A DNA stretch of 64,000 bases from Thermoplasmatota archaeon (GCA_029762535.1 JARVGK010000006.1:1-64000); one strand, 5' to 3'; shown: positions 7,001-59,215, counted from the first letter of the stretch. The notes: generated by a model from the letters alone, not told the origin. Translations and numbers: made by a program.

Positions 7001-7259
7001 CTTCCACGGCCCCTTCTCATGGACCGTGACCAAAGACGGATATGAACACATCTACGGGGATGGAGAAATAGCCCCGATGGAGGAGATGTTCCTGGACCTA
7101 TCCGGGGATCCCATGGTCAGGGAGAGGGGATCCGGATCCCTTATCCTCATAATCATCATTATTTCGATCATGGTCCTTGCCGCGGCGGGGATCGCAATGT
7201 TCCTCCTTCGGAAAAGGAGGGAAGATCCCGACAGCATCGAGACATCGAAGGAGGAATAA
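4029..7259 (+). CDS. GLUG-motif and PKD-domain cell-surface protein
   Basis: SD GGTGA upstream, signal peptide, GLUG repeats, about 6 PKD domains (F.GS.S.DNVGI..Y.W.F) and a C-terminal TM followed by RKRR. Confidence 0.85.
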   Translation: MISERPITIIILGMLLLCVFPIMEAEKAQGKDGSFGGGSGTKGDPYIIEDVWDLQNIRENLTAHYVLGNDIDASDTINWNSGAGFDPIGSSWYTYPIIGTPFTGSLNGQNHTIRGLFINRSSYVGLFGEIDQKGVVKDLILLDIIIFGTNKVGGIAGSFGGGFLTNCHAYGNVSGGINGTGGLIGYNAREITHCSFSGKVSGISVIGGLVGINNQGHIENCRASVSVIEKGANVGGLIGRNYGSVVKCQVVGSVIGDRIVGGLVGENYIGVISQSYSKANVSGCHRVGGLVGWEREGWLSNSYAMGSVTRLSGTNQSIGGFVGWNSHSQILNSYSTGKVIYNGSINPDNKGFAGIVYTGNGSWMRGNFWDNQTSMQKTTSGIATGKNTSAMKTRETFKQAGWDLKRVWCMNDHVTYPLLRWNEKFPTSNAGPDQTVDEGTVVMFDGSASIDDRGITNYTWMITDEKTVTLYGATNSYKFNRPGIFLVSLYVKNELGNMDEDTVKVIVSDITPPIADAGPDQIVEKGTYVQFNGSQSTDNVGVVHYEWTFFIGEPIKINGILPTHLFNSYGVFEVTLNVTDAAGFWDRDNMKVIVSDLTPPKAVAGNDLNVNEGAAVTFDGSQSTDNVGIVNWTWTIYDIDPVILYGVRVTYRFNNPGQFVIHLNVSDQKGNWNTDSLTVTVNDISPPVASAGQDRIVDEGTIVIFDGSGSYDNVQIINYTWKFNDGDIITLYGARPVYRFDHPGSFTVTLMVIDPSGHWHSDIVIITVRDTTLPMAVAGSDIYIDQGMTAYFNGSGSSDNVGIAYYNWTFDHGSERVALSGISPIFKFDIPGTYNVILNVTDTSGLWHEDTITVYVTDTIPPVANAGEDRTLPAGIVVIFNGSLSSDNHVIKSHIWTFSYDGEEKTFEGETFEFTFDSGGVYRILLTVIDQFDNRDNDTVSITVIDTGIVKGIVLDEKGDPVKGAQVKITASNDEEYSIETGTNGSFSLEIFHGPFSWTVTKDGYEHIYGDGEIAPMEEMFLDLSGDPMVRERGSGSLILIIIIISIMVLAAAGIAMFLLRKRREDPDSIETSKEE
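6838..7212 (+). repeat. Direct repeat copy 2 (~375 bp)
   Basis: Near-identical to 3610-3984. Confidence 0.95.
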
Positions 7260-7261
7260 TA

Positions 7262-7307
7262 GGATCCCTCATGATCACTCCTCGGAGGAGGGGATCCCGT
7301 TCTTTGA
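7262..7307 (+). repeat. 46-bp direct repeat, left copy (att-like)
   Basis: GGATCCCTCATGATCACTCCTCGGAGGAGGGGATCCCGTTCTTTGA matches 8192-8237 at 44/46 positions. Confidence 0.95.
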
Positions 7308-7326
7308 TTGTTCTTAACCAAATTCA

Positions 7327-7355
7327 TTTATATCAGATAGTAGCATTATACTATC
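7327..7355 (+). promoter_or_regulatory. TATA box plus inverted-repeat operator of the TA operon
   Basis: TTTATAT (7327-7333) is followed by GATAGTA-N6-TACTATC (7336-7355), just upstream of ATG 7367. Confidence 0.6.
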
Positions 7356-7366
7356 AGTTGATATAC

Positions 7367-7666
7367 ATGGCTACCCAGGTCAACGTCAGGCTCGATGACG
7401 ATCTCATACAGGAGATGGATTCCCTTGCAAGGGTAATGCGTCTTTCAAGAACGGAATACATAAGGTTGAGACTGGCCCAGGCCGTCCAGAATGATTCTTT
7501 GAACATGACCGATGTCATCGTTCTTGAATACGCCAAAGGTCGAATAGACGATGAAGAGCTAAAAGAATTGCTAGGCGATGATGCGGAGGATATCAAATTC
7601 ATCATCGAGCATATTCGAAAGGGTAAGAAAAAGATAGATGACCTCATCGAAAGGGATATTCTATGA
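7367..7666 (+). CDS. Ribbon-helix-helix (CopG-like) antitoxin
   Basis: MATQVNVRLDDDLIQEMDSLARVMRLSRTEYIR is an RHH signature. The gene overlaps the PIN gene by ATGA. Confidence 0.8.
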   Translation: MATQVNVRLDDDLIQEMDSLARVMRLSRTEYIRLRLAQAVQNDSLNMTDVIVLEYAKGRIDDEELKELLGDDAEDIKFIIEHIRKGKKKIDDLIERDIL

Positions 7667-8145
7667 GGCCGACTATCGGAATGGACACTTCGGCCATGGT
7701 ATCCTTGGGGCACACGGACATAGTTTCGGATATCGTCGATAATTATCAGATTGTCATATCCAGAGGAGTTCTATTCGAGCTAAAAGAGATAGCTAATAGA
7801 GATGATCCCGATGGCAGATCGGCGAAGAAGTGGTTGTCGTTTATGGATATGTTTTTAATCATGGAATCCACAGCCCATGATAACGCAGAGGATGATATGC
7901 AGGAGATATGCTTACGTGAAGACATCGTGTTGTTCACAGATGATGTACGCTGGTTGAAAAGATACAAAGGAAAAGTAGATTGTTTCTTCAGTGTTCATAT
8001 TCTTTATCTCCTCTATCGAAAAGGGTTAATATCCCTTGATGAAGCATTAATTTCATTATCCCTTATGAGAAATGAGAGGGACTGGAGGGACAATGTGATC
8101 ATCATATCTGCAAGAACTCTTTTTAAACATGAGTTGGAGATATGA
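7663..8145 (+). CDS. PIN-domain (VapC-like) toxin/ribonuclease
   Basis: N-terminal DTS motif, ELxE and a later LFTDD acidic motif typical of PIN domains; lies downstream of the RHH gene. Confidence 0.75.
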   Translation: MRPTIGMDTSAMVSLGHTDIVSDIVDNYQIVISRGVLFELKEIANRDDPDGRSAKKWLSFMDMFLIMESTAHDNAEDDMQEICLREDIVLFTDDVRWLKRYKGKVDCFFSVHILYLLYRKGLISLDEALISLSLMRNERDWRDNVIIISARTLFKHELEI

Positions 8146-8191
8146 TAAGACCCGCCAATGGTCAGTTACTTCGATGGATATCCTTGCTTAT

Positions 8192-8237
8192 GGATCCCTC
8201 AGGATCACTCCTCGGATGAGGGGATCCCGTTCTTTGA
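8192..8237 (+). repeat. 46-bp direct repeat, right copy (contains the DOMON gene stop codon)
   Basis: Matches 7262-7307 and encodes SKNGIPSSEE* on the minus strand. Confidence 0.95.
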
Positions 8238-11200
8238 CCCTTTTCTCATCGCTATCACGGCGATGACCGCTATCACCGCGATGACGAGGAGAATGATCGC
8301 GATCCAGATGAAGGGAAAGCCTTCCTCCTCCTCATCGTCCTGTCCGGAAGCGACCGAGAGCGTGCCCGATCCCCTTACGGAATGCGCCGATGCGGGATCG
8401 TCCTGCGATCCATACGCCCATATTATCGCGATATCATCCTTTATCTCCCTGTCGTATGAATCCGGGGTCACCTTGTTCCTCACGAACTCGATCGTGGTCC
8501 ATCCTCCCGCCTCCGATCCCCCGAACTCAAGGATGTCGTAAGTCCCGCCCAGGCTCGAATCCGGAGGATGAGGACCCGTCTCTCCTGTCGAGAAAGCGTC
8601 GATCACGTGGACATCGCCGTTTTCGTCCACCCATCCTATGATCATATCGGCATCCTTCATCCTCATCGTAGGTGAGAATCCCACCGCGACCCATCCGGTC
8701 GTTTTGGCCTTCATCGCCATTTTCACCTTCTCCCCTTCATAGGACCAATACAGGAGGTAATTCCCGCCATCGAAGGATAGCATGTTAGCGTACTCCCCTT
8801 CGGAAACGATCCCGTCTAACGTCGGTTCCGGGCCTGTTGTCGGCTCCTCCCCGAGCCGGATCGATCCCGACCCCCTATTCGTGTGCATGGCGGTGAACTC
8901 ATCCGTATCGGAGAAACCCCATATTATCGGTACAACCTCATCCGGCATCAGGTCCCTGTCGTAGAGATCCCCCGTCGATTGCTTTCTGACGAACTCGATC
9001 GTGGTCCATCCACCGCTCTCGCTCCCGCCATAAGATATGAGATCGTCCGTCCCCCCAAGCTGAGTGTCGGGAGGATGCGGCCCCGTCTCACCCGTGGAGA
9101 ACGCGTCCACCATGAACAGGTCGTCACCGACGACCCAGCCGAAGACCATGTCAGCATCCTTCATGCCGACGGTCGGCTTGAACCCTATCGATACCCAACC
9201 GGAGGCCTTCGCCATCATCGCGAGATGAATGTCATCTCCGGAAAGCTTCCAGTATAGCTTCATGTCCCCGGACGAATACTCCGCAGAATAGGCATACTCC
9301 CCATCGGTCACGATCCCGTCAAGCGTCCGCCTCGGATCGACGGGAGGGGTATGGGGCTCCTCCCACATCGAAAGGATGCCAGATCCTCTGAGTACGTGCT
9401 CGGAACTGAACTCGTCATCCGGCCCCAGGGCCCATATCACGGATACGTTGCCGTCGGTCGGGAACTCGAAATCATACTCATCATCTGTCACCAGCCTCCT
9501 CACGAACTCGATCACCGTTCTGCCATCGGCCTCCGTGCCTCCGAAAGCGAGGATATCGTCCTCACCTCCCAGCGTCGTATCGGGCGGGTGGGGGCCGTTT
9601 ATCCCTGTGGAGAACGCGTCCACGACATGGGCCCTCCCATCCTTCACCCAGCCGATGAGCATGTCAGCATCCTTCATTCCCATGGTGGGCTCGAAGCCTA
9701 TCGACACCCAACCCGTCGTGTTCCCGTCTAGCGCGATCGATAGATTGCCATCCTTCACGCTCCAGTGAACGAGCATCTCGGATCCCGAGAACGACGCCGA
9801 GAAATCGTATTCGCCTTCTGTGACGATCCCGTCGAGCAGCTCCCTGGGATCGGTCTCGTTCACGGGAGGCTCGTCCCCTATGAATATACTGCCGGAACCG
9901 CTGTGGATATGCATGGAAGTGAAATCGTCATCGGCTCCCATGGCCCATATGATGCTCAGCTCGGAGTCTAGCATTATCTCCTTGTCATAGGGATCCCCCG
10001 TTACCAGCTTCCGGCTGAACTCGATCACGGTTCCCTCCGAGGATCCCGTTCCTCCGTAGGTGAGGATGTCGTCCGTCCCTCCGAGGGTCGTGTCGGGAGG
10101 GTGAGGTCCGAAAACACCAGTGGAGTAAGCGTCGAGAACCGACGGGATACCGCCTGATACCCAGCCGAACACCATGTCGGCGTCCAGCATGACGTTCGTC
10201 GGCTCGAAGCCCACCGATATCCATCCTGATGTCCCTGCGGACATGCCCATCTTTATCTCGTCCCCGTCCACCATCCAGTGAAGTGTGAACCTGCCCCCGA
10301 ACTCCTTGGAAGCGTCGTATTCGCCGTCGGATATGACGCCGTCCTCTATCCATCTAGGATCCGTCTCATCAGGGATGAAGACCACATGGGCGCTCCCCCT
10401 CGAGGTATGAGCTGAATCGACCGCATCGGAGGATCCGATCCCCCAGATGACCGGTACAGACACCCCTTCGGGTATTGCGAAGTCGTAGGCGTCACCTGTA
10501 TCAAGAAGGCGGACGAACTCCAGAGTGGTCCAGCCGTCCTCCTCCGTGCCCCCGAACTCCATGATATCGTATGTCCCTAGAAGGTTCGTATCGGGAGGAT
10601 GCGGCCCATATACACCCGTGGAATACATGTCGAATACCATCACATCCGAGCCGGATACCCATCCGAAGAGCATGTCCGCGTCCTTCATGCCCTCGCTGGA
10701 GTTCAGACCCAGGGATATCCATCCGGTGCCCTTGCCCATGATCGCAAGGTGTATCATGTCGTCTGATACGTTCCAGTATAGGACGAACTCGTCCTCGGAG
10801 AGGACCTGCATGTGAGGATACTCGCCCTCTGAAACGATCCCGTCAAGGGTGGGGGAAGGTCCGGATATCTCGGCCTTGACCGCGATGGTATGGTTCAGAT
10901 ATCCCGGCACATATCCGGACCTGTTGGCTTTCATCCTCAGCACATCGTCCGTATCGATCTCGATATCGGGCGCTGTATAGTTGAAAGAGGCCGTTCCGTC
11001 CATGTTGTCGATGTAATTGGATATTGTACCGAGGTCCGAGGAGACCACGATATCAGCTCCGGATAACAGGTCGCTCCCCTCCATGACGCGCATGATGAAT
11101 GATACGGTGGTTTCCTCGTCGATCTCCTCCAGTTCCGGATCGATCTCTATGTATATCTGTCCCGGAGGGGGAGGGGTGGTGTCCCTGACCCTGAAGCCTA

Positions 11201-45301: not shown

Positions 45302-47542
45302 CTATATCGAGTCAATAATGGCATTGTAGGTCTGGCTAGGCCTCATGGCCCTGGATGCCATATCGTCATCCGGCTTGTAGTAGCCGCCTATGTCCACGGG
45401 ATGTCCTTGGGCCGCGTTAAGCTCCTGCAATATCTTATCCTCGTTCCCCTCGAGCTGTTCTGCCACGGGTGTGAATATACTCTTCAGCTCGGGATCGTCA
45501 TTCTGATCCGCAAGCTCCCTTGCCCAGAACATGGTCAGGTAGAAATGGCTGCCCCTGTTGTCTATCTCGTTGACGTCTCTACCGGGCGACCTATTGCTCT
45601 CGAGGAACCGACCGTTGGCCCTATCCAGGGTTTGGGACAGAACTCTAGCCTTTTCGTTCCCGGTCCTGTTGGCCAGGTGCTCGAGCGATGCCGATATGGC
45701 AAGGAACTCACCCAAAGAGTCCCATCTGAGATGACCCTCATTGAGGAACTGCTCGACGTGTTTGGGAGCGGAACCTCCCGCACCCGTCTCGAATAGACCT
45801 CCGCCGTTCATCAACGGCACGATCGAGAGCATCTTTGCGCTTGTGCCCACCTCTAGTATCGGGAAAAGGTCCGTGAGATAGTCCCTAAGGACGTTCCCAG
45901 TCACGGAAATAGTGTCCTTTCCCTCCTTTATGTACTGGCATGAGAACCTGGTGGCCTCGTCCGGAGACATTATCCTTATATCGAGCCCTGTCAGATCGTA
46001 TTCTTTCAGATATTCGTTCACTTTTTTGATCAATTCCGCATCGTGGGGCCTTTTCTCGTCAAGCCAGAACACGACAGGGAGCTTCGTATCGATGGCCCTG
46101 CCCACAGCTAATTTCACCCAGTCCTTGATCGCCGGGTCCTTGACCTCGCACATCCGGAAGATATCGCCCTTCTCCACATCCTGCTCCATCAGGACCTCGC
46201 CAGAGGAGGCGACTAGCCTCATCTTTCCGTCGCCTGGTGCCGAGAAGGTCTTATCATGGGACCCGTACTCCTCGGCCTTCTGGGCCATGAGGCCGACGTT
46301 CTGGACAGACCCCATGGACCTGGGGTCGAAAGCACCGTTCTGCCTGCAGAAATCGACGACGGCCCTGTACACCCCGGAATAGCTGCTGTCAGGGATCACG
46401 AACTTTGCCTCTTTAAGTGTCCCATCCTTTCCGTACATCCTACCACCTGCCCTGATGGCTGCGGGCATGGAGGCATCGATTATGACATCGCTCGGGACGT
46501 GGAGATTGGTTAGGCCCTTATCCGAGTTCACCATGGCCAGCTCTGGACCTTTGGCATACACCGCCTCGATGTCCTTCACTATCTCCAACCTCTTCTCCTC
46601 AGGTAGCGATGCGATCTTTGTGTATAGGTCTCCTAGTCCGTTGTTGGGGTTGATCCCAAGCTCCTTGAATATCACTTCATGCTTCTCGAATACGTCTGCG
46701 AAGAAAACGGAGACAACGTGTCCGAATATAATAGGGTCGGACACCTTCATCATCGTCGCCTTCAGATGGATAGAGAACAGTACCCCCATCTCTTTAGAGT
46801 GCTCTATCTGCCCCCTTATGAAATCCCTGAGGGATCTCACGCTCATGTGAGATGTATCGACGATCTCCAGGGCAGGCAGCTTCATATTATCCTTGAGGAC
46901 CTTGACATCGCCGTTATCTCCAGTATATTCTATCCTTGCCTCCATGTCCGAGTCTATCGTCAAAGACCTCTCGTTCGACCTGAGATCCCCGGATGCCATG
47001 CTGGATACATGCGCCCTGTTATCGGGTTTCCATTCAGCCATGGAATGCGGGTGCTTCCTCGCATAGTTCTTTACGGATGCCGGGGCTCTCCTATCTGAAT
47101 TCCCTTCTCTCAGGACGGGATTGACCGCGCTGCCTTTTATCTTATCATAGACGGTCTTTATCGTCCTTTCCTCATCGTTCTTGGGTTCATCTGGATAATC
47201 CGGCAGGGCGTACCCTTTGCCCTGCAGCTCCTTTATCGTCGCTTTTAGCTGTGGTATCGACGCGCTTATACACGGGAGCTTGATAACGTTCGCTTCGGGC
47301 ATTTTGACAAGCTTCCCCAGCTCTTCCAGGTCATCGTTGATCCTCTTGTCCTCGCTCAGATGGTCGGGGAACTTGGCTATCGTCCTGCCGGAGAGCGATA
47401 TGTCCCTGGTCTCCACCTTCACTCCCGCGGCTCCCGTGAACGCTTTGATCACGGGAAGCAGCGAATAGGTCGCAAGCGCCGGGGCCTCATCGACCCTGGT
47501 GTATATTATCCTGTTTCCATCAATTCTCTCTTCGTTCGACAT
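45302..47542 (-). CDS. icd: Monomeric NADP-dependent isocitrate dehydrogenase
   Basis: [39 protein letters not shown] and [13 protein letters not shown]; about 746 aa; SD AGGAG. Confidence 0.95.
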
Positions 47543-49172
47543 CCTTTTCCTCCTTTTCAGCGAATACCGCATCATCGTAGTATCTTGGTTCGACGTTCCT
47601 TACCACATCTATGATGGTCCCGTCCCTGTATTCGATCAAAGCAACGATCTCATCTCCCCAGTTAGGTTCGACCTTGGTCTGGGTTATCTCGTAGGCCTGC
47701 CTTTGAAGGTCCTCTATGGTCGTTATCTTCATGTCCCGGGGTATCTTGACCGAAGCGAGCTTTTCAAGAAGGTCGATCCTTCGCGGGTTCATCGCTATGC
47801 CCCGCTCTGTCACGACGACGTCAATGTTCTCTCCAGGGGTCACCACGGTGTTGACCCTGTCGACCACGACCGGATACCTTCCTCTGAAAAGAGGGACGGT
47901 CAATATCGTCAGGCTAGCTCCGGCCGCGGTGTCCGAGTGCCCTCCGACGGGCTCGGCTATGATGCCGTTGGACATCGTGACCGAATTAACGTTATAATCC
48001 AGATCCACCTCGGTCGCGCCCAGGACGACTATGTCCAGCTTGTTGACGGTACATCCTCTCCCATGTATGTTGGCGTATGCTCCGATAGGCAGGTCAACGT
48101 GGATCTTGGGGTTCTCCTTCATGTTATGTATGGCGGCCACATCGAATGCCTGGCCCGTGATGAGTTTCTTCACTGTCCCATCGAGGAGCATCTCGACAAG
48201 GAATTTCGTGGTCCCGCCCTGGGCCCAGGCGGCCTTCACCCCCTTTTCCTTCATCCTCTGATGAAGGAATTCCGTGAAAGCAAGCGAGATCCCCCCGGCC
48301 CCCGCTTGAAAGCTCATCCCCTCCTTGACGTAACCCAATAGGTCCGCGATCCTCATCGCGTCCTTGGCTATCTTGAGCCTGGTGGGCGAGTTGGTTATCC
48401 TGAGTTCGCCTGAGGCGATCTTGTTCGGATCCCCTATCTTGTCCACGACGACCACGTAATCTACCAGCTCCTGGCCGATGGACATGGGGAAGTTGGGATA
48501 TTCCACAAGATGGTCCGTCACTGCGATAACATGGTCGGCGAAGTGAGCATCGGCATAGGCGAAATTGATCGTACCGCAAGCTGATGGGCCGTTGATCGCG
48601 TTGAGATTTCCCAGTTCATCTGCGGATGGTGCTCCTATGAAGGCCACATCCACGTGTATGTCACCGGCCTCGATCGCCCGGACCCTTCCCCCATGGGACC
48701 GGATCCTCATAGGTTGGTTGAGATATCTTCCTGAGCTTACGAGCCTCCCGAACTCGCCCCTTGCGGAACCGCCTTCGACCTTTTTGATCGTCCCGTTCAT
48801 TATACATCGGATTATTGCCTCCTCCTGGCAGGGGAATGTGGATGAGGGGGCAAGGATGAGGTCCTTTATTCCCTTCCTCTCGATCTCCGCAAGGACCATG
48901 TTCATCACATGGTCCCCGTTCCTGAAATGGTGGTGGAAGGATATGGTCATGCCGTCCTTCAACCCGATCTTTTCCATTGCCTCGCCAAGTGTTTTCACAA
49001 CCTCGTTCTCCTCGGAGGCAACATATCCGAGCTTGGGTCCGTACTTATGGTCCTTGACCGGCCTGTGGGCGAAGGGACCTTTGTAAGGTATCAGCTCCAC
49101 ACCATCGATGGACCTCGGGACCTTTCTACCCAGGGAGTTCTCCACCCACTCCACATCCGAGATCTTCACCAT
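47520..49172 (-). CDS. citF: Citrate lyase alpha subunit (citrate CoA-transferase)
   Basis: [35 protein letters not shown]...NVN, GGHSDTA and EYRDGT.ID. Confidence 0.9.
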
Positions 49173-50116
49173 CAGTCATCGCCTCCACCGCTTTTTTTTG
49201 CCTTCTGCTGCATCATCTCCGTCACTTCCTCGGGAGATGGTATGTCAAGGTCCGCCATCTTGGCGATCTCGAGCACCCTCTCGGCCTTGAGCACTATTGG
49301 TCTGTCTATCATCTTCGCCCCTAGGGCGACCGCTCCTGAGCCCTTCTTTTTCGCTTCCTCGATAGCCATCTTCACCCTAACGGCGTAGAGGATCTGCTCT
49401 GGGGTTGGATCGAAAACCGAATGTATTATCTCGACCTGGCTGGGATGGATGCATGCCTTTCCATCGTAACCCATTGTCTTTATCATCTCGGTCTCCTTTC
49501 TCAAACCTTCGGGGTCGCCGAAATCAGAATAGACAGTATCTATTGCTTGTATCCCGGCGGCCTTGGCCGCGAGAAGTACCATCGACCTAGCCGTGTTTAT
49601 CGCCGTTCCTGTGCTGGACCTCTCACCCCCGAGATCCGCTGTAAGGTCCTCTCCGCCTATGGTAAGCGCCTCGAGTCTTTTGGAGCATCTTGCGATATCA
49701 TATGCGTTGATGATGCCCTTTGCCGTCTCCAATGTCGCGAACAGCTTTATCCTGCCTATTGGGAGGCCTTTCTTCTCCTCCAGGTCGGTCACGATATCAT
49801 CCACCTGTATGACGTCCTCCCTGGACTCGACCTTCGGAATGTATATGCCGTGCAGTTTCTCCGAGACTATCTGTTTGATGTCCCATTTCCCGTAGGGCGT
49901 GCTCATCGGATTGATCCTCACGGTGACCTCGGTCGCTGGGCCGAAATCGATGACCTTCAATGCCTCGGAGACGAGCATCCTGGCATCGGTCTTGTATTCG
50001 AGGGGAACGGAGTCCTCAAGGTCTAATGATATTACATCGGCGCCGTATAGACCTGCTGGGGGTATCATCTTCGGGTTGTTCCCTGGGACGTATAGCCTGG
50101 AACGTCTGAGCCTCAT
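49172..50116 (-). CDS. citE: Citrate lyase beta subunit (citryl-CoA lyase)
   Basis: RRS.LYVPGN, DLEDSV, VRIN, ETA.G, G.EDL and GK..IHP.Q. Confidence 0.9.
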   Translation of the reverse strand: MRLRRSRLYVPGNNPKMIPPAGLYGADVISLDLEDSVPLEYKTDARMLVSEALKVIDFGPATEVTVRINPMSTPYGKWDIKQIVSEKLHGIYIPKVESREDVIQVDDIVTDLEEKKGLPIGRIKLFATLETAKGIINAYDIARCSKRLEALTIGGEDLTADLGGERSSTGTAINTARSMVLLAAKAAGIQAIDTVYSDFGDPEGLRKETEMIKTMGYDGKACIHPSQVEIIHSVFDPTPEQILYAVRVKMAIEEAKKKGSGAVALGAKMIDRPIVLKAERVLEIAKMADLDIPSPEEVTEMMQQKAKKSGGGDD

Positions 50117-50397
50117 TCAAAAGCGCCCCCTTTTATCGCAGCGGCCTTGGTGCGCGCCACTATGGTGAAGTTCAGAGGGCTCTTACCAGAGCTCCAAACG
50201 ATGGCGTCCTCTATGCCCATACCGTGAAGCGTATTATCAAAGATCCGGAAGACCTCATCCCTGAAGACATCTCGGGATTTCCCCACTATTTCTATCTTTA
50301 TACCAGTCCCGGGCTCTGCGGGCGAGAGCTTTACTATGCAGTCCTCTCTCTCCTCGGTGCCGGCCTGGGCCTCCCTTAGCAGCTTTCTTGCGGCCAT
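50113..50397 (-). CDS. citD: Citrate lyase gamma subunit (ACP)-like protein lacking the attachment serine
   Basis: 94 aa directly upstream of citE. AQAGTEERED aligns with the canonical AVAGTLESxD. Confidence 0.75.
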   Translation of the reverse strand: MAARKLLREAQAGTEEREDCIVKLSPAEPGTGIKIEIVGKSRDVFRDEVFRIFDNTLHGMGIEDAIVWSSGKSPLNFTIVARTKAAAIKGGAFE

Positions 50398-50409
50398 GAC
50401 ATCACAACC

Positions 50410-52332
50410 TCATGAAAGCTGGCTCTTGGTATAATTGAGGGTTCCGCCGAGCCTGATGGTCTCCAGCTCCCTATCGGAGAGATCGTGGACGAGCTTTATC
50501 TTCGATCCCTTGTTCACTACCTCAATGATCAACTCACCCTTGAGATCGCCCACTTCCAGCTTCAGCTGGTCACCCTTCTCTATCTTGTCGTAATCGGAAG
50601 GGTCATTGAAGGTCAAGGGTGGGATCCCGAAGTTAATTAGGTTCGCCCTGTGTATCCTTGCGAAGGACTTGACGATAACAGCTTTGACACCAAGGTATTT
50701 CGGTGCCAGTGCTGCGTGCTCTCTGGATGATCCCTGACCGTAATTGTCCCCGCCGATGACGAAACCACCTTTCTTCTCGAGCGCCCTCTGCGGGAAGGTG
50801 TTGTCCACCTGACTGAAGACGAATTCGGATATGGCCGGGACGTTGGACCTGAGAGGCAGGATCTTCGCTCCTGCGGGCATGATGTGGTCCGTCGTTATGT
50901 TGTCTCCGACCTTTATAAGGACCTCCCCATTAAGCTCCGGCGATAGCGGTTGGAAGTCCGGCAGCGGTTTTATGTTAGGACCTCTCAGGATCTCCACCTT
51001 TCCCGCCTCATCAGGGGGCAGCGGATACACTATTAAGCTGTCGTCGTAGTCGTAAACCTCAGGTTCATCGATCATGTGCATTTGACCGATCTCCCTCGGG
51101 TCCGCGAACTCTCCCTTTATCGCCGTATAGGCAGCTATCTCTGGGGAGACCAGATAGACCTGGGCATCCTTTGTACCTGACCGGCCTTCGAAGTTGCGGT
51201 TGAATGTCCTCACTGATATCGCTCCCGTGTTCGGAGCGAGACCCATTCCAATGCATGGTCCACAGGCGTTCTCGAGCATCCTGAAACCCGCTCCGACGAT
51301 ATCCGCCAGCGCGCCGTTCTTGGTTATCATCTTCACAATGGCCCTCGATCCGGGGGATACGGTAGCGGATACATCCTGATGGACCTTCTTCCCCTTCATT
51401 ATCTGGGCGACAACCATAAGGTCCCTGTATGATGAATTCGTGCAGGAACCCACGCATACCTGGTCCACTTTCATACCCAGAAGCTCTTTGAGGGTGACCA
51501 CCGCCCCTGGGGAATGAGGTTTTGCCACCATCGGCTCCAAGGATGAGAGGTCTATCTCCATGACCGTATCGTAAGCTGCGTCATCGTCAGCTTTCAGTTC
51601 GATCCATTGGTCCTCCCTGCCCTGTGCCTTGAGGAACTGCCTGGTGATCTCGTCCGAGGGAAATATGGAGGTCGTGGCTCCCGTTTCCGTCCCCATATTT
51701 GTGATCGTGGCCCTGTCCGGGACGCTCAAACTCTTAATGCCTGGGCCGAAATACTCAAGTATGAATCCCCTGCCTCCCTTTACATCGAGCCTTCTTAGGA
51801 CCTCGAGTATCACGTCCTTGCCGGATACCCAATCAGGAAGCTCACCCTTCAGATGGACCCCCATGATCTTCGGGTACTTCAGACCGAAGGCCCCACCTCC
51901 CATGGATACTGCGACATCGAGACCGCCTGCACCTATGGCGAGGGATGCCACGCCACCAGCAGTTGGTGTGTGGGAGTCCGATCCGATCAGGGTCTTTCCC
52001 GGCCTTGCGAAGCGTTCGAGCATTACCTGATGGCAGATCCCGTTGCCGGCCTTGGACAGCGTAATGCCATATCTCCTCGCGATGGATTGGAGATACCTGT
52101 GATCGTCAGCGTTCTTGAAATCGCTCTGCAGCGTGTTATGGTCTATGAATGATACGCTCAATTCGGTCTTTACCCGGTCAAGGCCCATTGCCTCGAACTG
52201 AAGGTATGCCATGGTCCCAGTAGCATCTTGGGTGAGCGTCTGGTCCATCTTGATCCCTATATCGGATCCTTTCTCTTCATCTCCTGATACGATATGTTCT
52301 CTGATGATCTTCTCCGAAAGGGTTAGTCCCAT
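50410..52332 (-). CDS. acn: Aconitate hydratase (short, ~640 aa type)
   Basis: QDATGTMA, DHN, GSDSHT, GSCTN, CGPCIG, NRNF, TTDHI and GSSREHA; SD AGGAGG. Confidence 0.9.
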   Translation of the reverse strand: MGLTLSEKIIREHIVSGDEEKGSDIGIKMDQTLTQDATGTMAYLQFEAMGLDRVKTELSVSFIDHNTLQSDFKNADDHRYLQSIARRYGITLSKAGNGICHQVMLERFARPGKTLIGSDSHTPTAGGVASLAIGAGGLDVAVSMGGGAFGLKYPKIMGVHLKGELPDWVSGKDVILEVLRRLDVKGGRGFILEYFGPGIKSLSVPDRATITNMGTETGATTSIFPSDEITRQFLKAQGREDQWIELKADDDAAYDTVMEIDLSSLEPMVAKPHSPGAVVTLKELLGMKVDQVCVGSCTNSSYRDLMVVAQIMKGKKVHQDVSATVSPGSRAIVKMITKNGALADIVGAGFRMLENACGPCIGMGLAPNTGAISVRTFNRNFEGRSGTKDAQVYLVSPEIAAYTAIKGEFADPREIGQMHMIDEPEVYDYDDSLIVYPLPPDEAGKVEILRGPNIKPLPDFQPLSPELNGEVLIKVGDNITTDHIMPAGAKILPLRSNVPAISEFVFSQVDNTFPQRALEKKGGFVIGGDNYGQGSSREHAALAPKYLGVKAVIVKSFARIHRANLINFGIPPLTFNDPSDYDKIEKGDQLKLEVGDLKGELIIEVVNKGSKIKLVHDLSDRELETIRLGGTLNYTKSQLS

Positions 52333-52509
52333 TTTATTCCTCCTTATCACCTGCCCATCGGGGCGATTGCCATAAGTCGAACCGATATATATATGTTACT
52401 GAATTATAATTATAGAAAATCTTTTTTATATTATTGTAGATGATTTCTTAAATTAATTTCCATTATAACGATGAATATATATATGATCGGGTGCATCATG
52501 TAAGCCAAT
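52333..52509. promoter_or_regulatory. AT-rich divergent promoter region (acn operon / regulator)
   Basis: Very AT-rich. ATATATATATG occurs twice (~52386 and ~52475), and several TTTATA/TTAAA boxes are present. Confidence 0.55.
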
Positions 52510-53664
52510 ATGAAGAACTTGAACGATGCTGAGAGAACGGCCCTGTTCGGTCTCGTGACATTTCCCGATCTCAACGACATGGACCTCTCACAACGTTTCT
52601 CAATGAAGTATTCCACATTCGCCTCGGCCAAGAGTCGCGTGATCGCAAAGGGATTCGTCGATGAGTACTATCTGCCCGTATTCCCTAGGCTTGGCTTCGA
52701 GCTATTGGCGACCGTATATACGGATTTCAACCCTGCTGTGACTGTGGAGGAACGCGTCAAGAACACGATAAAGCATGTAGAGGTCTATCCCGAGATGGTT
52801 TTTTCCCTCGGAGAGTCACACAGGGGTTTCTCGATATCGATCGCTGAGAACGTCACCCGCGTCATGAGGATATCACTCGAGAGGATCAAGTTGTTCGCTG
52901 AGCTGAACCTTCTGGAGATCGAGCTTCCCACGGAGATAATGCTTCCGTTCGAACTCTCGAACATTCATAGGTACTTCAACCTCTCACCACTGATCAATCT
53001 TACTTACTCCACCACGGGCAAGAGCGGGTCGGAGCTTTCCAAGGAATTCTCCATCCCCCGAAGCGATCTTCTTTTTGGGGATTCGATTATGCAGGTCAAT
53101 CCTAAAAACGAAAGATCGCAAGAGGACGATCTCTCCAGGGTGGAAAAGGAGCTGATGTACTATATAGTGAAGTACCCTCAACTATCGGCGGCAAAGCTCG
53201 CGAACATCGCCCCCTATTCTAGGCATACGATATCAAAGGTGAGGGAGGACATGCTGTATCGGGGTCTTCTAACCAAGCAGGTCATTCCGAACCTCAATGT
53301 ACTAGGATATTCCATACTCTCCCTGTTCCATGCCCGGATCGATCCAAGCAAACCCATAGATCCATCGACATGCAACCGGAGAGAGATCCTCCAGGATGAG
53401 ACCGTGTTCCTTGTCAGTAGGCCGACCGAGCTTTTGATGCTCGCCGTTTACGAGGATTACGTACATTACAACAAAGGCATGGGTGCTTTCATCCAGTTCC
53501 TCAAGTCAGGGAACTACATAACCAAGATCCCGACGATAAGGAACCACTCCCTCAAAGAGGCGATCATGATCAAGAGGTTCCAGTACCATGAGCTCCTGAG
53601 ACAGAGGTTCTCGCTCAATATCAAAGATGGTCGAGATACCAATATCGATGATCATCTCTCGTGA
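52510..53664 (+). CDS. Tandem-duplicated Lrp/AsnC-like winged-HTH transcriptional regulator
   Basis: Two homologous halves (L...E...L..LV.FP.L....L......ST.......GF......P....LG and LS..EK..M..IVKYP.LS...LA....SRHT.S......GL.....P....LGY). Confidence 0.65.
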   Translation: MKNLNDAERTALFGLVTFPDLNDMDLSQRFSMKYSTFASAKSRVIAKGFVDEYYLPVFPRLGFELLATVYTDFNPAVTVEERVKNTIKHVEVYPEMVFSLGESHRGFSISIAENVTRVMRISLERIKLFAELNLLEIELPTEIMLPFELSNIHRYFNLSPLINLTYSTTGKSGSELSKEFSIPRSDLLFGDSIMQVNPKNERSQEDDLSRVEKELMYYIVKYPQLSAAKLANIAPYSRHTISKVREDMLYRGLLTKQVIPNLNVLGYSILSLFHARIDPSKPIDPSTCNRREILQDETVFLVSRPTELLMLAVYEDYVHYNKGMGAFIQFLKSGNYITKIPTIRNHSLKEAIMIKRFQYHELLRQRFSLNIKDGRDTNIDDHLS

Positions 53665-53936: not shown

Positions 53937-54698
53937 TCAAACATCGAGCTCGATCCCGACCGGGCAATGATCGGAACCCGTTACTTCTTTTAATATGAAC
54001 GCGTCATTCAACTTTGGCAGCAACACCTCATCTAAGAAGAAATAATCTATCCTCCAGCCGATGTCGCGCTCTCTGGCCCTGGTCTTGTAATCCCACCAGG
54101 AATATGATACCTCTTCGGGATGCGTATGCCTGAAGGAATCAAAAAAACCCGAACCTATGACCTTGTCTATCCACTTCCTCTCGATGGGGAGGAATCCGGA
54201 TATCTTTTCGTTCTCCTTCGGCCTGGCCAGATCGATCTCGTTATGGGCAGTGTTCACATCGCCGCAGAACACCACTGCCCTACTCTTCCTGTATTCCAAT
54301 ATCCTCTCCAGGAAAGCCTCGTAGAAATCCAACTTGAACCTCAATCTCTCATCGCCCTGTTTACCATTGGGGAAGTATGCATTGAAGAGTATGAATTTCT
54401 CGTGATGGGAGATCACAAGCCTTCCCTCCCGATCTAAACTCTCGATCCCCAATCCGTATTCCACCTCTAAGGGTTCGTCCCTGGACCATGTGCTGACGCC
54501 TGAATATCCCTTCTTTTCTGCGGATGTAAAATACTTTTCAAAACCTTCAAAGTCAAGTATCACCGGGTCCAGCTGCTCAGGACGGGCCTTGGTCTCTTGT
54601 ATGCAGAATATGTCCGGTCCGTCCTCTTTGATGAATTCGAGCATGCCCTTGGATGCCGCGGACCTGATCCCGTTGACGTTCCACGATAAGAGCCTGAT
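53937..54698 (-). CDS. xth: Exodeoxyribonuclease III / AP endonuclease
   Basis: LSWNVNGIR, QETK, EGR, YFPN, GD.N.AH, WRIDY and SDHCP. The likely start is ATC 54698 after GAGGTGAT. Confidence 0.95.
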   Translation of the reverse strand: MRLLSWNVNGIRSAASKGMLEFIKEDGPDIFCIQETKARPEQLDPVILDFEGFEKYFTSAEKKGYSGVSTWSRDEPLEVEYGLGIESLDREGRLVISHHEKFILFNAYFPNGKQGDERLRFKLDFYEAFLERILEYRKSRAVVFCGDVNTAHNEIDLARPKENEKISGFLPIERKWIDKVIGSGFFDSFRHTHPEEVSYSWWDYKTRARERDIGWRIDYFFLDEVLLPKLNDAFILKEVTGSDHCPVGIELDV

Positions 54699-54702
54699 CG
54701 GA

Positions 54703-55956
54703 TCACCTCTTCTTGCGGGCCTTGATCTCGACGCTCGGGCTGAGATCGACAACGCTCTGACCCCTTACCAGGTCGTCGGGTATGGGCTTCTCCTTCTCGG
54801 ATACGAGATCTGGAAAGAGGGTGTTCAATTTCTTTGTTTCGAAGGGGCCCGAACGTAACAGCTTCGGAGGGTCCGTGCTCATATCGAGCACCGTATGGCC
54901 TATGCCGTAATGGGTAGGCCCTCCATCAACGGCTATTGTCACGGTTTCCCCCAGTTGCTTGAGCGCCTCCTGCATTGTAGAGGGTGGAGGCTGCCCATGG
55001 ATGTTCGCAGAAGTGCCACATATCTCTATCCTCTCCATCACCGCTTTCATGAAGATGTTCTCACCGTCGGCTAGAGAGACGGTCTTCAGATTGGATGTAA
55101 CATAGTCGGGCACCCGTTCCTTCTTCTTTATGAATATAATGGATATCGGCCCGTCCAATTCGTTCTCCAGCAATGCCATGGTTCTGTCATCGATCTTCGC
55201 GTAATCCGTGAAACGGCTTCTCGGGACTATCATGGTCAGAGGCATGTCCTCTCCGCGTTTCTTCATCGCGTAGATCCTCTTGATGGCCTCCGGACGTTTT
55301 ATTGAGGCGAAAAGCCCATAGGTTGTATCGAAGGGACCTAAAAGGACCTCCCCTCGATTCAACATCTCGACCACGGTATCGACATATTTTTCCTTTGCCG
55401 GAAATATCTTCACCTTTTCAACCTCCTTCATTCTATCATTGTCCTTGAAAGGTCTGCTCATCTCCGATATACCGCCCTTCTCTATAAGAAGGGGAAATAG
55501 TCCGCCTTTTTCGATAATATCCATTATGAAACCTTGAAGCGGGGGCAGCGGCGAATCCCAACCCTTGGTGATATTATGTAACCTGTTATCCTCTATCAGG
55601 ACGCTGTCACCGTCAGAGCAAGCATCGGGAAGGTCGGGGTCCTCGTAAAGCGGTATGCCGAGATTTATCAGGTTCCTCTTCATTATAGGGGCTATTGACT
55701 TGGCAATGACCGCTTTTATTCCCAGGAACCTCATGGCGTTTGAGGCATGCTCTCTTGAGGACCCCTTGCCGAAGTCCTCACCGGCGACGATCACATCGCC
55801 TTCTCTGACCCCGGAGGCGAACCCAGGATAATCCTGCTCAAGGCAATGAAGGGAATAATCCTCCTGTGGAAGATGCAGATACCTCGTAGGGGCCAGCGCA
55901 TCGGTATCGATATTATCCCCCAAAAGCCATATCCTTCCCTTTGCGATCTGTTTCAA
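54703..55956 (-). CDS. Fusion of a LeuD/HacB-type isomerase small subunit and a YrdC/Sua5 (TsaC) domain
   Basis: N-terminal GDNIDTD, FG.GSSREHA and RN.IN.G motifs; C-terminal P.DT.YGL, K.R, TSAN, DGG and LLR.G motifs; one continuous frame. Confidence 0.85.
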   Translation of the reverse strand: MKQIAKGRIWLLGDNIDTDALAPTRYLHLPQEDYSLHCLEQDYPGFASGVREGDVIVAGEDFGKGSSREHASNAMRFLGIKAVIAKSIAPIMKRNLINLGIPLYEDPDLPDACSDGDSVLIEDNRLHNITKGWDSPLPPLQGFIMDIIEKGGLFPLLIEKGGISEMSRPFKDNDRMKEVEKVKIFPAKEKYVDTVVEMLNRGEVLLGPFDTTYGLFASIKRPEAIKRIYAMKKRGEDMPLTMIVPRSRFTDYAKIDDRTMALLENELDGPISIIFIKKKERVPDYVTSNLKTVSLADGENIFMKAVMERIEICGTSANIHGQPPPSTMQEALKQLGETVTIAVDGGPTHYGIGHTVLDMSTDPPKLLRSGPFETKKLNTLFPDLVSEKEKPIPDDLVRGQSVVDLSPSVEIKARKKR

Positions 55957-57182
55957 GGCACCACCTCTGAAGGATGGGCTATAACGCCTTTTAGCGCGGA
56001 TGCCGCCGCGACGGCGACACCGCTTAGGTATATCTTGCTCGTGGGATCTCCCATTCTACCCTTGAAGTTTCGATTGGTGGTAGAGATCGCCACCTCTCCT
56101 GCGGGGAGGACTCCGAGGAAACCTCCTGCACAAGGGCCACAAGTAGGCATCGATATTATCCCCCCAGCATCCATAATGGTCTTAACGTATCCCGCCCTGG
56201 CCGCCCGGGTGTATACCGATCTCGACCCGGGAACGACGAGCATCTTGACCTCTGGGTGGATCTTCTTTCCCTTCAGGATGTCCGCCAGGACCCTGAGATC
56301 GTCCATTCTTCCATTTGTGCATGAGCCAATGAAGACCTGATCTATCCTCTTTCCGGTATGATTGTAGACATCGTCCACTCGATCCGGGGAACCTGGCAAG
56401 GATATCTGAGGTCCTCTGTCGGTCACATCGATATGCTCGGTCTCCCAGTCCCAATCCTTCGATCCTGGCCCTTCATCATCGCTTTCGTTCGTCAGCGCTG
56501 ATATACAATCTATCTCCGATGCCATATTGGTGAGTGTCATCCTGGAATCGTTTCCGATCCAATTCAATATATCCCCCTTCATCTCGAGCGTTCTGCCGTT
56601 CGCCCCGCCCGGTCCGAGGTGCTTGATCATCATAAGCGCCAGGTCCTTTCCCTCGCACCATACGTCCGGGGTACCCTCGAAGTATATGCCAAGGGGTTTA
56701 GGAACCTGCAGCCAGAACTCCCCGGAGGCCATGGCGACGGCCAGGTCCGTGGACCCTATGGCCGTGCAGAACGCACCCAAAGCACCTCCGGTCGTTATAT
56801 GGGAATCGGCGCCTATGACGAGATCACCCTTCTTGACCCGATCCCCCTCGAAGAGATGCACGTGACATATGCCCTCGCCCCATCCGATCAGGTTCGCTAT
56901 TCCGTGACGGGATGAGAATTCTGTCATGGCCCGGCAGCTTTCGGCTGATTCAAGGTCCTTCGGCGGAGTGAAATGGTCCAGATAAAGGTATATCTTCTTG
57001 GCCGCCCTTAGATACGGGACACCTTTGGAGTCCAACATCCTCATCGCAGGTGGGGTTGTAACATCATGTCCCATTATATGGTCCGGGAAGAAAACACCGT
57101 AATCCCCCGGGACGAGATCCCCTTCGATCATATGATCTGAGAGTATGGACAACGCCAATGAACCAAGTACATCCCCGTTCAT
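55953..57182 (-). CDS. leuC: 3-isopropylmalate/homoaconitate-type isomerase large subunit (LeuC/HacA)
   Basis: DH, GICH, GADSH, GSCTNGR, PTCGPC and STTNRNF.GRMG. Confidence 0.85.
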   Translation of the reverse strand: MNGDVLGSLALSILSDHMIEGDLVPGDYGVFFPDHIMGHDVTTPPAMRMLDSKGVPYLRAAKKIYLYLDHFTPPKDLESAESCRAMTEFSSRHGIANLIGWGEGICHVHLFEGDRVKKGDLVIGADSHITTGGALGAFCTAIGSTDLAVAMASGEFWLQVPKPLGIYFEGTPDVWCEGKDLALMMIKHLGPGGANGRTLEMKGDILNWIGNDSRMTLTNMASEIDCISALTNESDDEGPGSKDWDWETEHIDVTDRGPQISLPGSPDRVDDVYNHTGKRIDQVFIGSCTNGRMDDLRVLADILKGKKIHPEVKMLVVPGSRSVYTRAARAGYVKTIMDAGGIISMPTCGPCAGGFLGVLPAGEVAISTTNRNFKGRMGDPTSKIYLSGVAVAAASALKGVIAHPSEVVP

Positions 57183-58360
57183 TGGCAGTGCCTCCTCAGG
57201 GATTTCAATTCGAAACCGTTGGCCCTTGCGAATTGTATAAGATCGTCCTCAGTATCGAACGGGCCTTTGTATGTGGTCGTCTCTTTTACCAGGTCCGTGA
57301 GCTTTATCAATTTCTCATCGTCCAATGTCAGATTGTTCTTCTCGAGGAAATGTCTCAGTGCCGCCTTTCCGGTATGCTTTCCGATCACGAACTGACCTTT
57401 ATGCAGTCCCATCTCCTCCGGGTCGATGATCTCGTAGGTCAGGGGGTTCTTTAGTACGCCATGAACGTGTATACCGGACTCGTGCTTGAAAGCGTTCTCT
57501 CCTATGAGAGGCTGCCATATCTGTATGTTCAGACCCATCTCGTTCTTCACGGTGTCGCATAGGTTGCCAAGTCTGTCCATCTTCAAATTGGTTTCCACGC
57601 CCAGATGCCTGATGTTGAACTTCAATACGACCGCTATCTGTTCTAGAGGGCAGTTCCCGGCCCTCTCTCCGATCCCGGTCACCGTGCAGTCTATCTGTCC
57701 CGCACCGGCCCTGACCGCCGATAAGGTGTTGGCAGTTGCCAATCCTAGATCGTTGTGGCAGTGTATGCCCACCGGAACCCTGTCCCCAACACACGAGCGG
57801 ACATGCTGGATCATGAGAGAAATATGCTCGGGCATTGCACATCCGACCGTATCCGCGAGATTGACCACATCGGCTCCAGCTCTGACCCCTTCCTTCATAA
57901 TGTTCCCCAGAAAGAACAGGTCGGACCTTGTCGCGTCCTCCGAGCTGAACTGAATGGAATCGAACTTACCCTTGGCGTACCTTATCGCGTTGATCATCTT
58001 GTTTATGACATCCAGGGGTTCCATCCTGAGTTTGTCCCTCATGTGTATCGGAGAGGTGGATACCCAGAGGTGGAGCCTTGACCTTCCCGCTCTGGAAAGG
58101 ACCTCCTGGCACATGTCGATCTCGGTCGTTATCGGCCTGCATAGAACAGCTACTGTGGAGTTCTCCACCTCCTTGGAGATCATCCTTATCGCATTTCTCT
58201 CTGATCCTCCGTTGGCCGGAAAACCTGCCTCAAGTACGTCCACTCCGGCCGAGTCCAAAGCACGGGCTATGTTCACCTTCTTTTCTGGGGTGAGGTGTAT
58301 CCCTGGCGCCTGCTCACCATCCCTCAGAGTGGTATCGAATACCCTTAAATTCCTGACCAC
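57179..58360 (-). CDS. DRE-TIM 2-isopropylmalate/homocitrate/citramalate synthase family enzyme without a regulatory domain
   Basis: DTTLRDGEQ, EDATR, DTVG, HCHNDLG, GIGERAGN and HESGIH; 393 aa. Confidence 0.9.
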   Translation of the reverse strand: MVRNLRVFDTTLRDGEQAPGIHLTPEKKVNIARALDSAGVDVLEAGFPANGGSERNAIRMISKEVENSTVAVLCRPITTEIDMCQEVLSRAGRSRLHLWVSTSPIHMRDKLRMEPLDVINKMINAIRYAKGKFDSIQFSSEDATRSDLFFLGNIMKEGVRAGADVVNLADTVGCAMPEHISLMIQHVRSCVGDRVPVGIHCHNDLGLATANTLSAVRAGAGQIDCTVTGIGERAGNCPLEQIAVVLKFNIRHLGVETNLKMDRLGNLCDTVKNEMGLNIQIWQPLIGENAFKHESGIHVHGVLKNPLTYEIIDPEEMGLHKGQFVIGKHTGKAALRHFLEKNNLTLDDEKLIKLTDLVKETTTYKGPFDTEDDLIQFARANGFELKSLRRHCQ

Positions 58361-58537: not shown

Positions 58538-59215
58538 ATGATAACGGAATATCAATTGGAAGAGGCCCTTCTCAACGGGTTCGAATATCCGGTAGCGCTC
58601 GTGGTCGAAGTGACGAAGCAGGGGATAGTCCTTTCGAAGATGCGCTATCTGAAAGCCGTTGGGGATGTGGTCAACGAAACGGTCAGATGTCCGTCGATGG
58701 TCATGTATTGTCACATGGGCAAATTCATCGATCCTCATCTCATTGGACAGAGGACTGGACCTATGGGTATCGACCTCCTATACCTTATGGAGCTGAACAA
58801 GGGTCTCTTCAACGAGTCCGTCGATGCGATAAGGAGGGGGAGGTCGATGGTCAATACCAACAATCCAAGCACGAAGAACATTGCATCGGCCCTATTGGAG
58901 AAGATCAACACCAGGGACAGGATCAACTTCAACAGATTGACAGCTCAGGAACAAGGGCTGATACTCGAACCGTATGTCCATTACCTACTGAAAAGAGCCG
59001 GTTCCGGCAAGAGGAAATTGTTCCAGAACGTGGAACTGGTCGAAAGGGGCGGTCTGATAAAATGCCGTTCAGGCGATGAGATAATAAGGTTCAGGCCCAC
59101 TCCCGCTCCGATGATGGAGCTTGATATACTCCTTGTTACCAATATGAACACGATGTCATCCATACTCAAGGACCTCGAGATGATGGGTTTCAAGAAGGAA
59201 ACCCTACAGTTCTAG
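58538..59215 (+). CDS. Hypothetical protein
   Basis: SD GGAGGT, 225-aa ORF with host-like codon usage; no motif recognised. Confidence 0.65.
   Translation: MITEYQLEEALLNGFEYPVALVVEVTKQGIVLSKMRYLKAVGDVVNETVRCPSMVMYCHMGKFIDPHLIGQRTGPMGIDLLYLMELNKGLFNESVDAIRRGRSMVNTNNPSTKNIASALLEKINTRDRINFNRLTAQEQGLILEPYVHYLLKRAGSGKRKLFQNVELVERGGLIKCRSGDEIIRFRPTPAPMMELDILLVTNMNTMSSILKDLEMMGFKKETLQF

Follow-up and report, generated by a model that had tools for sequence, protein, structure and literature searches.

An in-frame LeuD::YrdC fusion in a leu-type operon of Thermoplasmatota and its place in a non-canonical clade of the YrdC fold

The operon and the conservation of its fusion gene

The window analyzed here is a 64,000-nucleotide stretch from a Thermoplasmatota archaeon (GCA_029762535.1, JARVGK010000006.1:1-64000), and between positions 54703 and 58360 it carries an operon encoding a LeuA-type synthase (P0001), a LeuC-type large subunit (P0002) and a protein (P0003) in which a LeuD-type small subunit is fused in frame to a YrdC/TsaC-like domain. 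The three open reading frames lie on the minus strand (58360..57179, 393 amino acids [aa]; 57182..55953, 409 aa; 55956..54703, 417 aa), and consecutive genes share 4 nt each in stop/start overlaps; read directly, the junctions are CAATGAACGGG, an ATGA overlap, and CCTTGAAACAG, a TTGA overlap. The original prediction had described an overlapping three-gene operon with an in-frame LeuD::YrdC fusion, no LeuB-type dehydrogenase and a synthase devoid of its regulatory domain, and all of this is borne out: the reading frames lie exactly at the predicted positions, both domains of the fusion are matched, the operon contains no Iso_dh gene (the genome's single PF00180 gene is on another contig), and a domain search finds no LeuA_dimer C-terminal regulatory domain in the 393 residues of P0001. 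The features of the locus are as follows.

57179..58360, minus strand: predicted short LeuA-type 2-alkylmalate synthase P0001, 393 aa, GTG start, HMGL-like and HCS_D2 domains
55953..57182, minus strand: LeuC-type large subunit P0002, an aconitase-family hydro-lyase of 409 aa, assigned by profile and motifs
55477..55956, minus strand: LeuD-type small-subunit domain, P0003 residues 1-160, TTG start, LEUD_arch
55387..55476, minus strand: interdomain linker, P0003 residues 161-190
54841..55386, minus strand: non-canonical YrdC/TsaC-like predicted adenylating domain, P0003 residues 191-372
54703..54840, minus strand: conserved C-terminal tail, P0003 residues 373-417, and stop codon
53937..54752, minus strand: exodeoxyribonuclease III (xth; TIGR00633, 290.7 bits), directly downstream of the fusion gene
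58538..59215, plus strand: 225-aa protein P0125, divergent from the operon and a member of the conserved synteny block

The fusion is not peculiar to this assembly. An architecture search recovered some 30 protein clusters (398-425 aa, 59-90% identity) with both domains together, from JGI, ENA, NCBI and Logan assemblies, several of them named Thermoplasmatota and one 'Thermoplasmatales archaeon ex4484_6'. The fusion is present in 18 of the 24 genomes of one GTDB family, counting the window's own, and is missing from all 17 outgroup genomes, which belong to the same order, class or phylum. The gene order 'divergent 225-aa unknown / synthase / LeuC / LeuD::YrdC / xth' is identical on 430-kb and 192-kb contigs from other genera. 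Among 1.84 billion representative proteins the fusion family forms one 50% cluster whose next relative is just 41% identical, which indicates that the fusion arose once. The linker (residues 161-190) has a mean pairwise identity of 62% and contains no stop codon in any of 18 aligned homologues; the structure model has low confidence at residues 163-172. An assembly artefact or a lost stop codon confined to one genome, which had been named as a possible undoing of the prediction, is ruled out by the independent assemblies, the 18 family genomes and the stop-free linkers.

The synthase P0001 combines an HMGL-like domain (PF00682, 1.8e-79) with HCS_D2 (PF22617, 1.9e-25) and falls under every equivalog cut-off, the best model being NF002086 at 426 bits against a cut-off of 532. 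Among solved structures it is nearest to the catalytic domains of bacterial isopropylmalate synthases (3RMJ, 2.1e-81). Homocitrate synthases carry a His and an Arg (AHSR, VRY/F) at two positions that P0001 fills with Leu and Gln (VLCR, IQFS), and we take this His and Arg to bind the distal carboxylate of 2-oxoglutarate (H72 and R133 in the Thermus thermophilus homocitrate synthase). The Leu/Gln pattern is shared by Neisseria meningitidis LeuA, and the His/Arg pattern is found in solved homocitrate synthases and in the synthase of this genome's lysine cluster. On these residues P0001 resembles a LeuA-type rather than a homocitrate-type enzyme, and as a synthase it appears intact. Orthologues at 57-69% identity occur solely within the Thermoplasmatota family, and the next best matches are at about 40%.

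P0002 belongs to the aconitase family (NF001614, 417 bits, cut-off 385), and its translation shows all three Fe-S cysteines (in GSCTNGR and CGPC) together with a DSH triad and an NRNFKGR motif. Residues 7-155 of P0003 match LEUD_arch (TIGR02087, 128.1 bits, cut-off 108.95) and include the GSSREHA catalytic motif (GKGSSREHA). With these cysteines and motifs in P0002 and the GSSRE motif in P0003, the LeuC/LeuD hydro-lyase looks active, as far as its motifs can tell; binding of LeuC to LeuD is textbook knowledge. The LeuD domain is nearest to the small subunit of the Methanocaldococcus jannaschii isopropylmalate/citramalate isomerase (3VBA, 1.7e-33, about 40% identity), and the modelled domain gives template-modelling (TM) scores of 0.87-0.90 to 3VBA and 1V7L. 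With the archaeal LeuC/LeuD (MJ0499/MJ1277, 3VBA) and HacA/HacB (MJ1003/MJ1271, 2PKP) the pair shares the two-subunit hydro-lyase organization, all catalytic motifs, the large-then-small subunit order and the overlapping stop and start. It differs in the 257-residue C-terminal extension of P0003, in the missing LeuB partner in the operon and ilvC in the family, and in its specificity loop, which is neither YLVY (isopropylmalate type) nor YLRT (homoaconitase type), reference loops that were read from alignments to solved enzymes. The loop is YLHL here and YLN-Q, YLT-L, YLS-S or others in homologues, and since it has no conserved Arg, homoaconitase-type specificity is unlikely for this domain. 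A homocitrate synthase/homoaconitase assignment, for lysine or a coenzyme-B-like pathway, was rejected on these grounds: the lysine cluster has its own synthase, and both P0001 and the LeuD loop are without the carboxylate-binding residues.

A non-canonical YrdC domain and its clade

The YrdC/TsaC fold is among the few universal protein families, and the chemistry known for it is limited to carbamoyl-adenylates (t6A, HypF, TobZ). Residues 197-370 of P0003 match Sua5_yciO_yrdC (PF01300, 1.9e-34, 119 bits), with the best alignments to Thermotoga maritima TsaC2, Sulfolobus tokodaii Sua5 and Pyrococcus abyssi Sua5, and the structure model superposes on the first two of these. Compared with TsaC/Sua5 (EC 2.7.7.87; 9D3H, 3AJE, 6F87), the domain has the same fold (Foldseek E 5e-17, sequence E 2.7e-30), the KxR/SxN tetrad, the carboxy-holding Arg and a recognizable start of the Sua5 linker. 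It differs from them in its position behind LeuD, in belonging to a separate clade within a genome that has its own canonical TsaC, in lacking a SUA5 domain and the PGM and HY motifs, and in three residues of the substrate pocket.

In P. abyssi Sua5, K56, R58, S143 and N145 form the ATP/pyrophosphate tetrad, R195 holds the bicarbonate/carbamoyl carbon, and threonine is bound by T33, T35, R121, S181 and R195 (PMC6004061, PMC10321239). The fused domain keeps the whole tetrad (K232, R234, S316, N318) as well as R195 (R368) and T35 (T211), and replaces T33 by F209, R121 by A296 and S181 by H354. The kept residues and the three changed ones are alike invariant in the 18 aligned homologues, and among the 149 nearest representatives drawn from 1.84 billion proteins the canonical residue is found at these positions in 138 (T), 134 (R) and 136 (S). 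Since the ATP motifs are kept and the threonine pocket is lost, a substrate other than threonine is likely. The original prediction had proposed a dedicated pathway that makes and activates a non-standard acid for a tRNA modification similar to hydroxynorvalylcarbamoyladenosine (hn6A); the part that concerns a non-threonine substrate is supported by these residues, and the link to hn6A is not.

Mean pairwise identity is 78% in the YrdC domain, 59% in the LeuD domain and 43% in the family's stand-alone TsaC; judged by these values, the fused domain is under strong purifying selection, more so than its surroundings. The C-terminal tail opens like the Sua5 linker (LFPDLV) and contains neither the Sua5 PGM and HY motifs nor a SUA5 domain. 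Its mean pairwise identity is 67%, with D394, L396, S401, P407 and V409 invariant, and the model is disordered from residue 388 onward.

About 15 of the nearest representatives co-vary at the three pocket positions while keeping the tetrad. In a phylogenetic tree the fused domain and these 15 non-canonical representatives form a clade (support 0.996-0.997) that excludes canonical TsaC/Sua5 and the stand-alone proteins of Thermoplasmatota, with the family's own TsaCs in a separate clade (support 0.987). The grouping was first noticed by the pocket residues, which make up 3 of the 182 tree columns. The tree rules out a recent duplication of the family's own TsaC. Neither the tetrad nor R195 varies within the fusion family or among the clade members examined.

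The gene contexts of this clade fall into about seven independent cluster types. A bacterial contig (L069:110-7678, JGI metagenome 3300079876) encodes Iso_dh, a short LeuA-like synthase of 394 aa, a TenA/haem-oxygenase-like protein, Amidohydro_2, LeuC, LeuD, two tandem YrdC paralogues and a citrate-synthase-like protein. Because the LeuCD there is of bacterial type, the sequences indicate that this association with LeuACD is independent of the archaeal one, and the contig probably carries a biosynthetic cluster for a metabolite. In Streptomyces, a Propionibacterium metagenome-assembled genome (MAG) and two metagenome contigs, the YrdC domain, fused or adjacent to a short-chain dehydrogenase/reductase (SDR), is clustered with a CitD-like acyl carrier protein (ACP), a CitE-like protein, CitX and CitG, and neither CitC nor CitF is present in these clusters. 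This looks like an undescribed carrier-dependent hydroxy-acid system, of which the YrdC domain may be the loading ligase. The clusters lie at L072:8397-13868 (Propionibacterium sp. MAG), at L073:6028-12921 (Streptomyces) and on contigs L066 and L071, in the order unknown 396-aa protein / CitD-like ACP / CitE-like / CitX / YrdC::SDR / CitG, followed by UbiD or a major facilitator superfamily (MFS) transporter.

An 18-kb Logan contig (SRR26090898) has the cluster HgdA-like / YrdC / HgdB-like / activator / PrpD (genes 4456-11133). The YrdC gene on this contig sits between two 2-hydroxyacyl-CoA-dehydratase-like subunits, with a PrpD/MmgE-family dehydratase downstream and a radical-SAM/SPASM protein upstream. 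Other members of the clade have a radical-SAM/PqqD context, a B12-binding neighbor or an FHA::YrdC fusion. Among the contexts examined, none of Kae1, TsaD, TsaB and TsaE adjoins a clade member; where the source names the proteins, they are nearly all called 'L-threonylcarbamoyladenylate synthase'. A search of the genome contigs for relatives of the non-canonical clade gave no match with P0132 as query and one locus with alignment A4, and full-text searches found no paper in which YrdC is connected with isopropylmalate enzymes or with CitX/CitG.

The same evidence bears on whether the domain is catalytic at all. It could instead be a ligand-sensing module (for ATP/AMP or a metabolite), an RNA-binding regulatory module standing in for the regulatory domain of the synthase, or a structural appendage. 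The synthase indeed has no LeuA_dimer feedback domain, nucleotide and RNA binding are known for proteins of the YrdC fold, the operon encodes no acceptor enzyme, and the FHA::YrdC fusion suggests signalling within the clade. We nevertheless regard a non-catalytic role as quite unlikely, given that the tetrad and R195 do not vary across the fusion family and the clade members examined and that the YrdC domain is the most conserved part of P0003.

Leucine, t6A and neighboring genes in the genome

The genome (2.96 Mb, 93% complete) encodes three YrdC domains: the fused domain, that of HypF, and a stand-alone 201-aa TsaC on contig C28 with all canonical threonine-pocket residues. A canonical TsaC is separately present in nearly all genomes of the family, including those without the fusion, and the C28 protein, its family orthologues and the stand-alone YrdC proteins of the outgroups have the motifs PT[DE]T.YG, K.RP, (A/G)(V/F)R.P.H, TSAN, PS(T/A)..D and (L/I)R.G. 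The genome encodes one Kae1, one HypF and no NodU-type carbamoyltransferase.

The branched-chain pathway that would feed a LeuA is missing, as none of the 24 genomes in the family has an ilvC above the cut-off and the window's genome has no ilvD. An ilvD-like dehydratase is above the cut-off in 11 of the 24 family genomes. Apart from P0001, the only HMGL synthase is the homocitrate synthase of a LysX/ArgC lysine cluster, and the single Iso_dh gene adjoins a class-I lysyl-tRNA synthetase. Elsewhere the genome has a high-scoring LeuCD pair and a third pair, and in the outgroup genomes the closest LeuCD pairs are followed by an Iso_dh gene in the classical arrangement. The third LeuC/LeuD-like pair (C17:32886-34699; 431 and 173 aa) has low scores to all subfamily models; the genes after it encode an unknown 199-aa protein and a PrsW-family protease.

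The original prediction would have been reduced to ordinary metabolism if the operon held the genome's sole Sua5 and sole leuCD; the C28 TsaC and the other LeuCD pairs rule out both. Given the lack of ilvC, the separate TsaC, the altered pocket and the separate clade, the fused domain is very probably not the enzyme of N6-threonylcarbamoyladenosine (t6A) synthesis, and the operon very probably not one for leucine synthesis. We therefore consider it very improbable, and largely refuted, that these are ordinary leucine (or citramalate/isoleucine) enzymes joined by a neutral gene fusion to a second threonine-specific synthase of threonylcarbamoyl-AMP. Such an explanation could appeal to the score of P0003 with TIGR00057 (124.7 bits, 1.5 bits above the cut-off of 123.2), to P0001 being the sole LeuA-like synthase of the genome besides that of the lysine cluster, and to an isopropylmalate/citramalate isomerase as the closest solved small subunit. 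It does not account for the invariant change of three threonine-pocket residues, nor for the slower evolution of the fused domain relative to the family's housekeeping TsaC.

Directly downstream of the fusion gene, the start of xth is uncertain, being either a TTG at 54752 (a 50-nt overlap with the fusion gene) or a non-canonical codon near 54698. Between 54687 and 54752 there is no ATG, GTG or TTG near the expected start, and the sequence GAT CCG ATC AGG CTC TTA TCG TGG AAC encodes D P I R L L S W N; in relatives, xth begins 4-5 nt past the stop of the fusion gene. The divergent P0125 matches no Pfam family and has a weak language-model lead to DUF169/COG2043, and its orthologues occupy the same position in other genera at 60% identity.

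An aconitase / citD / citE / citF / isocitrate dehydrogenase (IDH) operon (45302-52350, minus strand) follows some 1.6 kb downstream of xth, on the same strand and separated from it by a plus-strand regulator gene (52510-53664). The CitE-type lyase of this operon could conceivably accept an activated alkylmalate. The genome yielded no classical citrate synthase, its single Citrate_synt match being ATP-citrate-lyase-like (C5:994-1593). A reading of P0001 and the isomerase as Re-citrate synthase and aconitase, prompted by this absence, was set aside, as the complete aconitase-citDEF-IDH operon is a close neighbor and nothing sets such a reading apart.

A candidate module for synthesis and activation of hydroxy acids

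We hypothesize that the fused domain adenylates a product of the isomerase to which it is attached, so that the operon would be a lineage-specific module for the synthesis and activation of a hydroxy-dicarboxylic acid. We hold this tentatively, at a probability of roughly 0.4, and what we infer is that the domain is catalytically active, which substrate it takes and where the adenylate goes. The short LeuA-type synthase would join acetyl-coenzyme A (acetyl-CoA) and a 2-oxo acid without a distal carboxylate to give a 2-alkylmalate, which the LeuC/LeuD hydro-lyase would convert to a 3-alkylmalate. The YrdC-fold domain would then turn a carboxy group and ATP into an adenylate and pyrophosphate, and the adenylated carboxy group of the 3-alkylmalate would be transferred to a thiol such as CoA or to a different nucleophile, which would substitute for the absent LeuB reaction.

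A 3-alkylmalate (O2C-CH(OH)-CH(CO2)-R) is nearly isosteric with N-carboxy-threonine (O2C-NH-CH(CO2)-CH(OH)CH3), the species that TsaC adenylates, and this similarity would provide a chemical reason for recruiting such a domain to LeuD. Phe and His in place of polar pocket residues would fit the loss of the β-hydroxyl. The recurrence of clade members in clusters that need thioester-activated hydroxy acids and are without a ligase supports a ligase-like role. A functional analogue suggested by gene context is CitC, the acetate:SH-citrate lyase ligase, an ATP-dependent, adenylate-forming enzyme that loads an acid onto a carrier thiol, although CitC has no sequence or fold kinship with the YrdC domain. 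YciO, a TsaC paralogue in which much of the active site is retained, does not function in t6A synthesis in vivo (bioRxiv 10.1101/2024.07.01.601547). It is a much weaker match to the fused domain (1K7J, E 2e-9, versus 2.7e-30 for TsaC2) and is linked to RNase AM/rRNA contexts rather than to hydroxy-acid genes.

The domain might alternatively make a carbamoyl-adenylate, either plain carbamoyl-AMP in the manner of HypF and TobZ, with which an intermediate of the pathway would be carbamoylated, or the N-carboxy-adenylate of a non-standard amino acid that stems from the LeuA/LeuCD reactions, for an hn6A-like modification or a small metabolite. Every characterized member of the fold adenylates carbamates (PMC10321239), and here R195, the holder of the bicarbonate/carbamoyl group, is invariant along with the whole ATP tetrad. 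The YrdC-like domains of HypF and TobZ are moreover non-threonine adenylating domains within multidomain enzymes that lack equivalents of R121 and S181, and a profile-guided alignment finds the same absence in the HypF of this genome. However, the known YrdC domains that form carbamoyl-AMP are always paired or fused with a Kae1-like transferase domain, and none is fused or adjacent here, in a genome with its one Kae1, one HypF and no NodU-type enzyme; the similarity of HypF to the fused domain (E 5e-10) is also much lower than that of TsaC/Sua5. An amino acid product would require LeuB and an aminotransferase, neither of which is in the operon.

The variant of this alternative that leads to hn6A, as in the original prediction, is weak. 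Hydroxynorvaline is already converted to hn6A by ordinary TsaC/TsaC2 with TsaD, which need the β-hydroxyl of the amino acid (PMC7430679), and the fused domain has several polar pocket residues replaced, including the threonine hydrogen-bonders (S181H, R121A) and T33 (T33F). The clade members whose contexts were examined have no t6A genes as neighbors. Taken together, we consider carbamoyl-adenylate formation somewhat unlikely but a serious rival to the activation of an isomerase product.

Several observations weigh against our hypothesis that a 3-alkylmalate is activated. The HypF pattern means that carbamoyl-AMP chemistry would fit the residue changes equally well, and P0003 does exceed the TIGR00057 cut-off, by the small amount given above. 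R121 hydrogen-bonds the bound threonine in Sua5 (PMC6004061, PMC10321239), presumably through its α-carboxylate, so that the loss of this residue does not fit the second carboxylate that a 3-alkylmalate retains. If the substrate were tightly defined, the LeuD specificity loop would not be expected to vary within the family as it does. The operon has no conserved acceptor enzyme, be it a CoA-transferase, a lyase or an amide synthase, and the citD/E/F operon is not adjacent to the fusion operon in two other genera. Of the roughly seven cluster types of the clade, three (radical-SAM/PqqD, B12-binding and FHA) are without hydroxy acids.

A broader and more speculative version of the hypothesis, which we think unlikely as a whole, is that the entire non-canonical clade consists of ATP-dependent ligases for 2-hydroxy di- or tricarboxylic acids (alkylmalates, citrate-type acids), which they would adenylate and hand on to CoA or to carriers of the citrate-lyase type, with the archaeal fusion channeling 3-alkylmalate from LeuCD to a 3-alkylmalyl thioester. 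If this were true, the thioester formed with pyruvate as the 2-oxo acid would be β-methylmalyl-CoA, and a split of the CitE/malyl-CoA-lyase type would yield glyoxylate and propionyl-CoA. Acetyl-CoA and 2-oxo acids would thereby be connected to acyl-CoAs by a new route, and a universal fold would have a new chemistry.

What is new here is the fusion itself and an uncharacterized functional clade of that fold, the LeuCD and YrdC parts being of known kinds. The clade provides a testable lead to a new activity of the YrdC fold and to the missing activation step in orphan clusters, one of which is in cultivable Streptomyces. For this uncultured, protein-degrading sediment archaeon, the metabolic reading is corrected: 'leuACD' is not evidence of leucine synthesis, and the second 'TsaC' is very probably not redundant t6A machinery.

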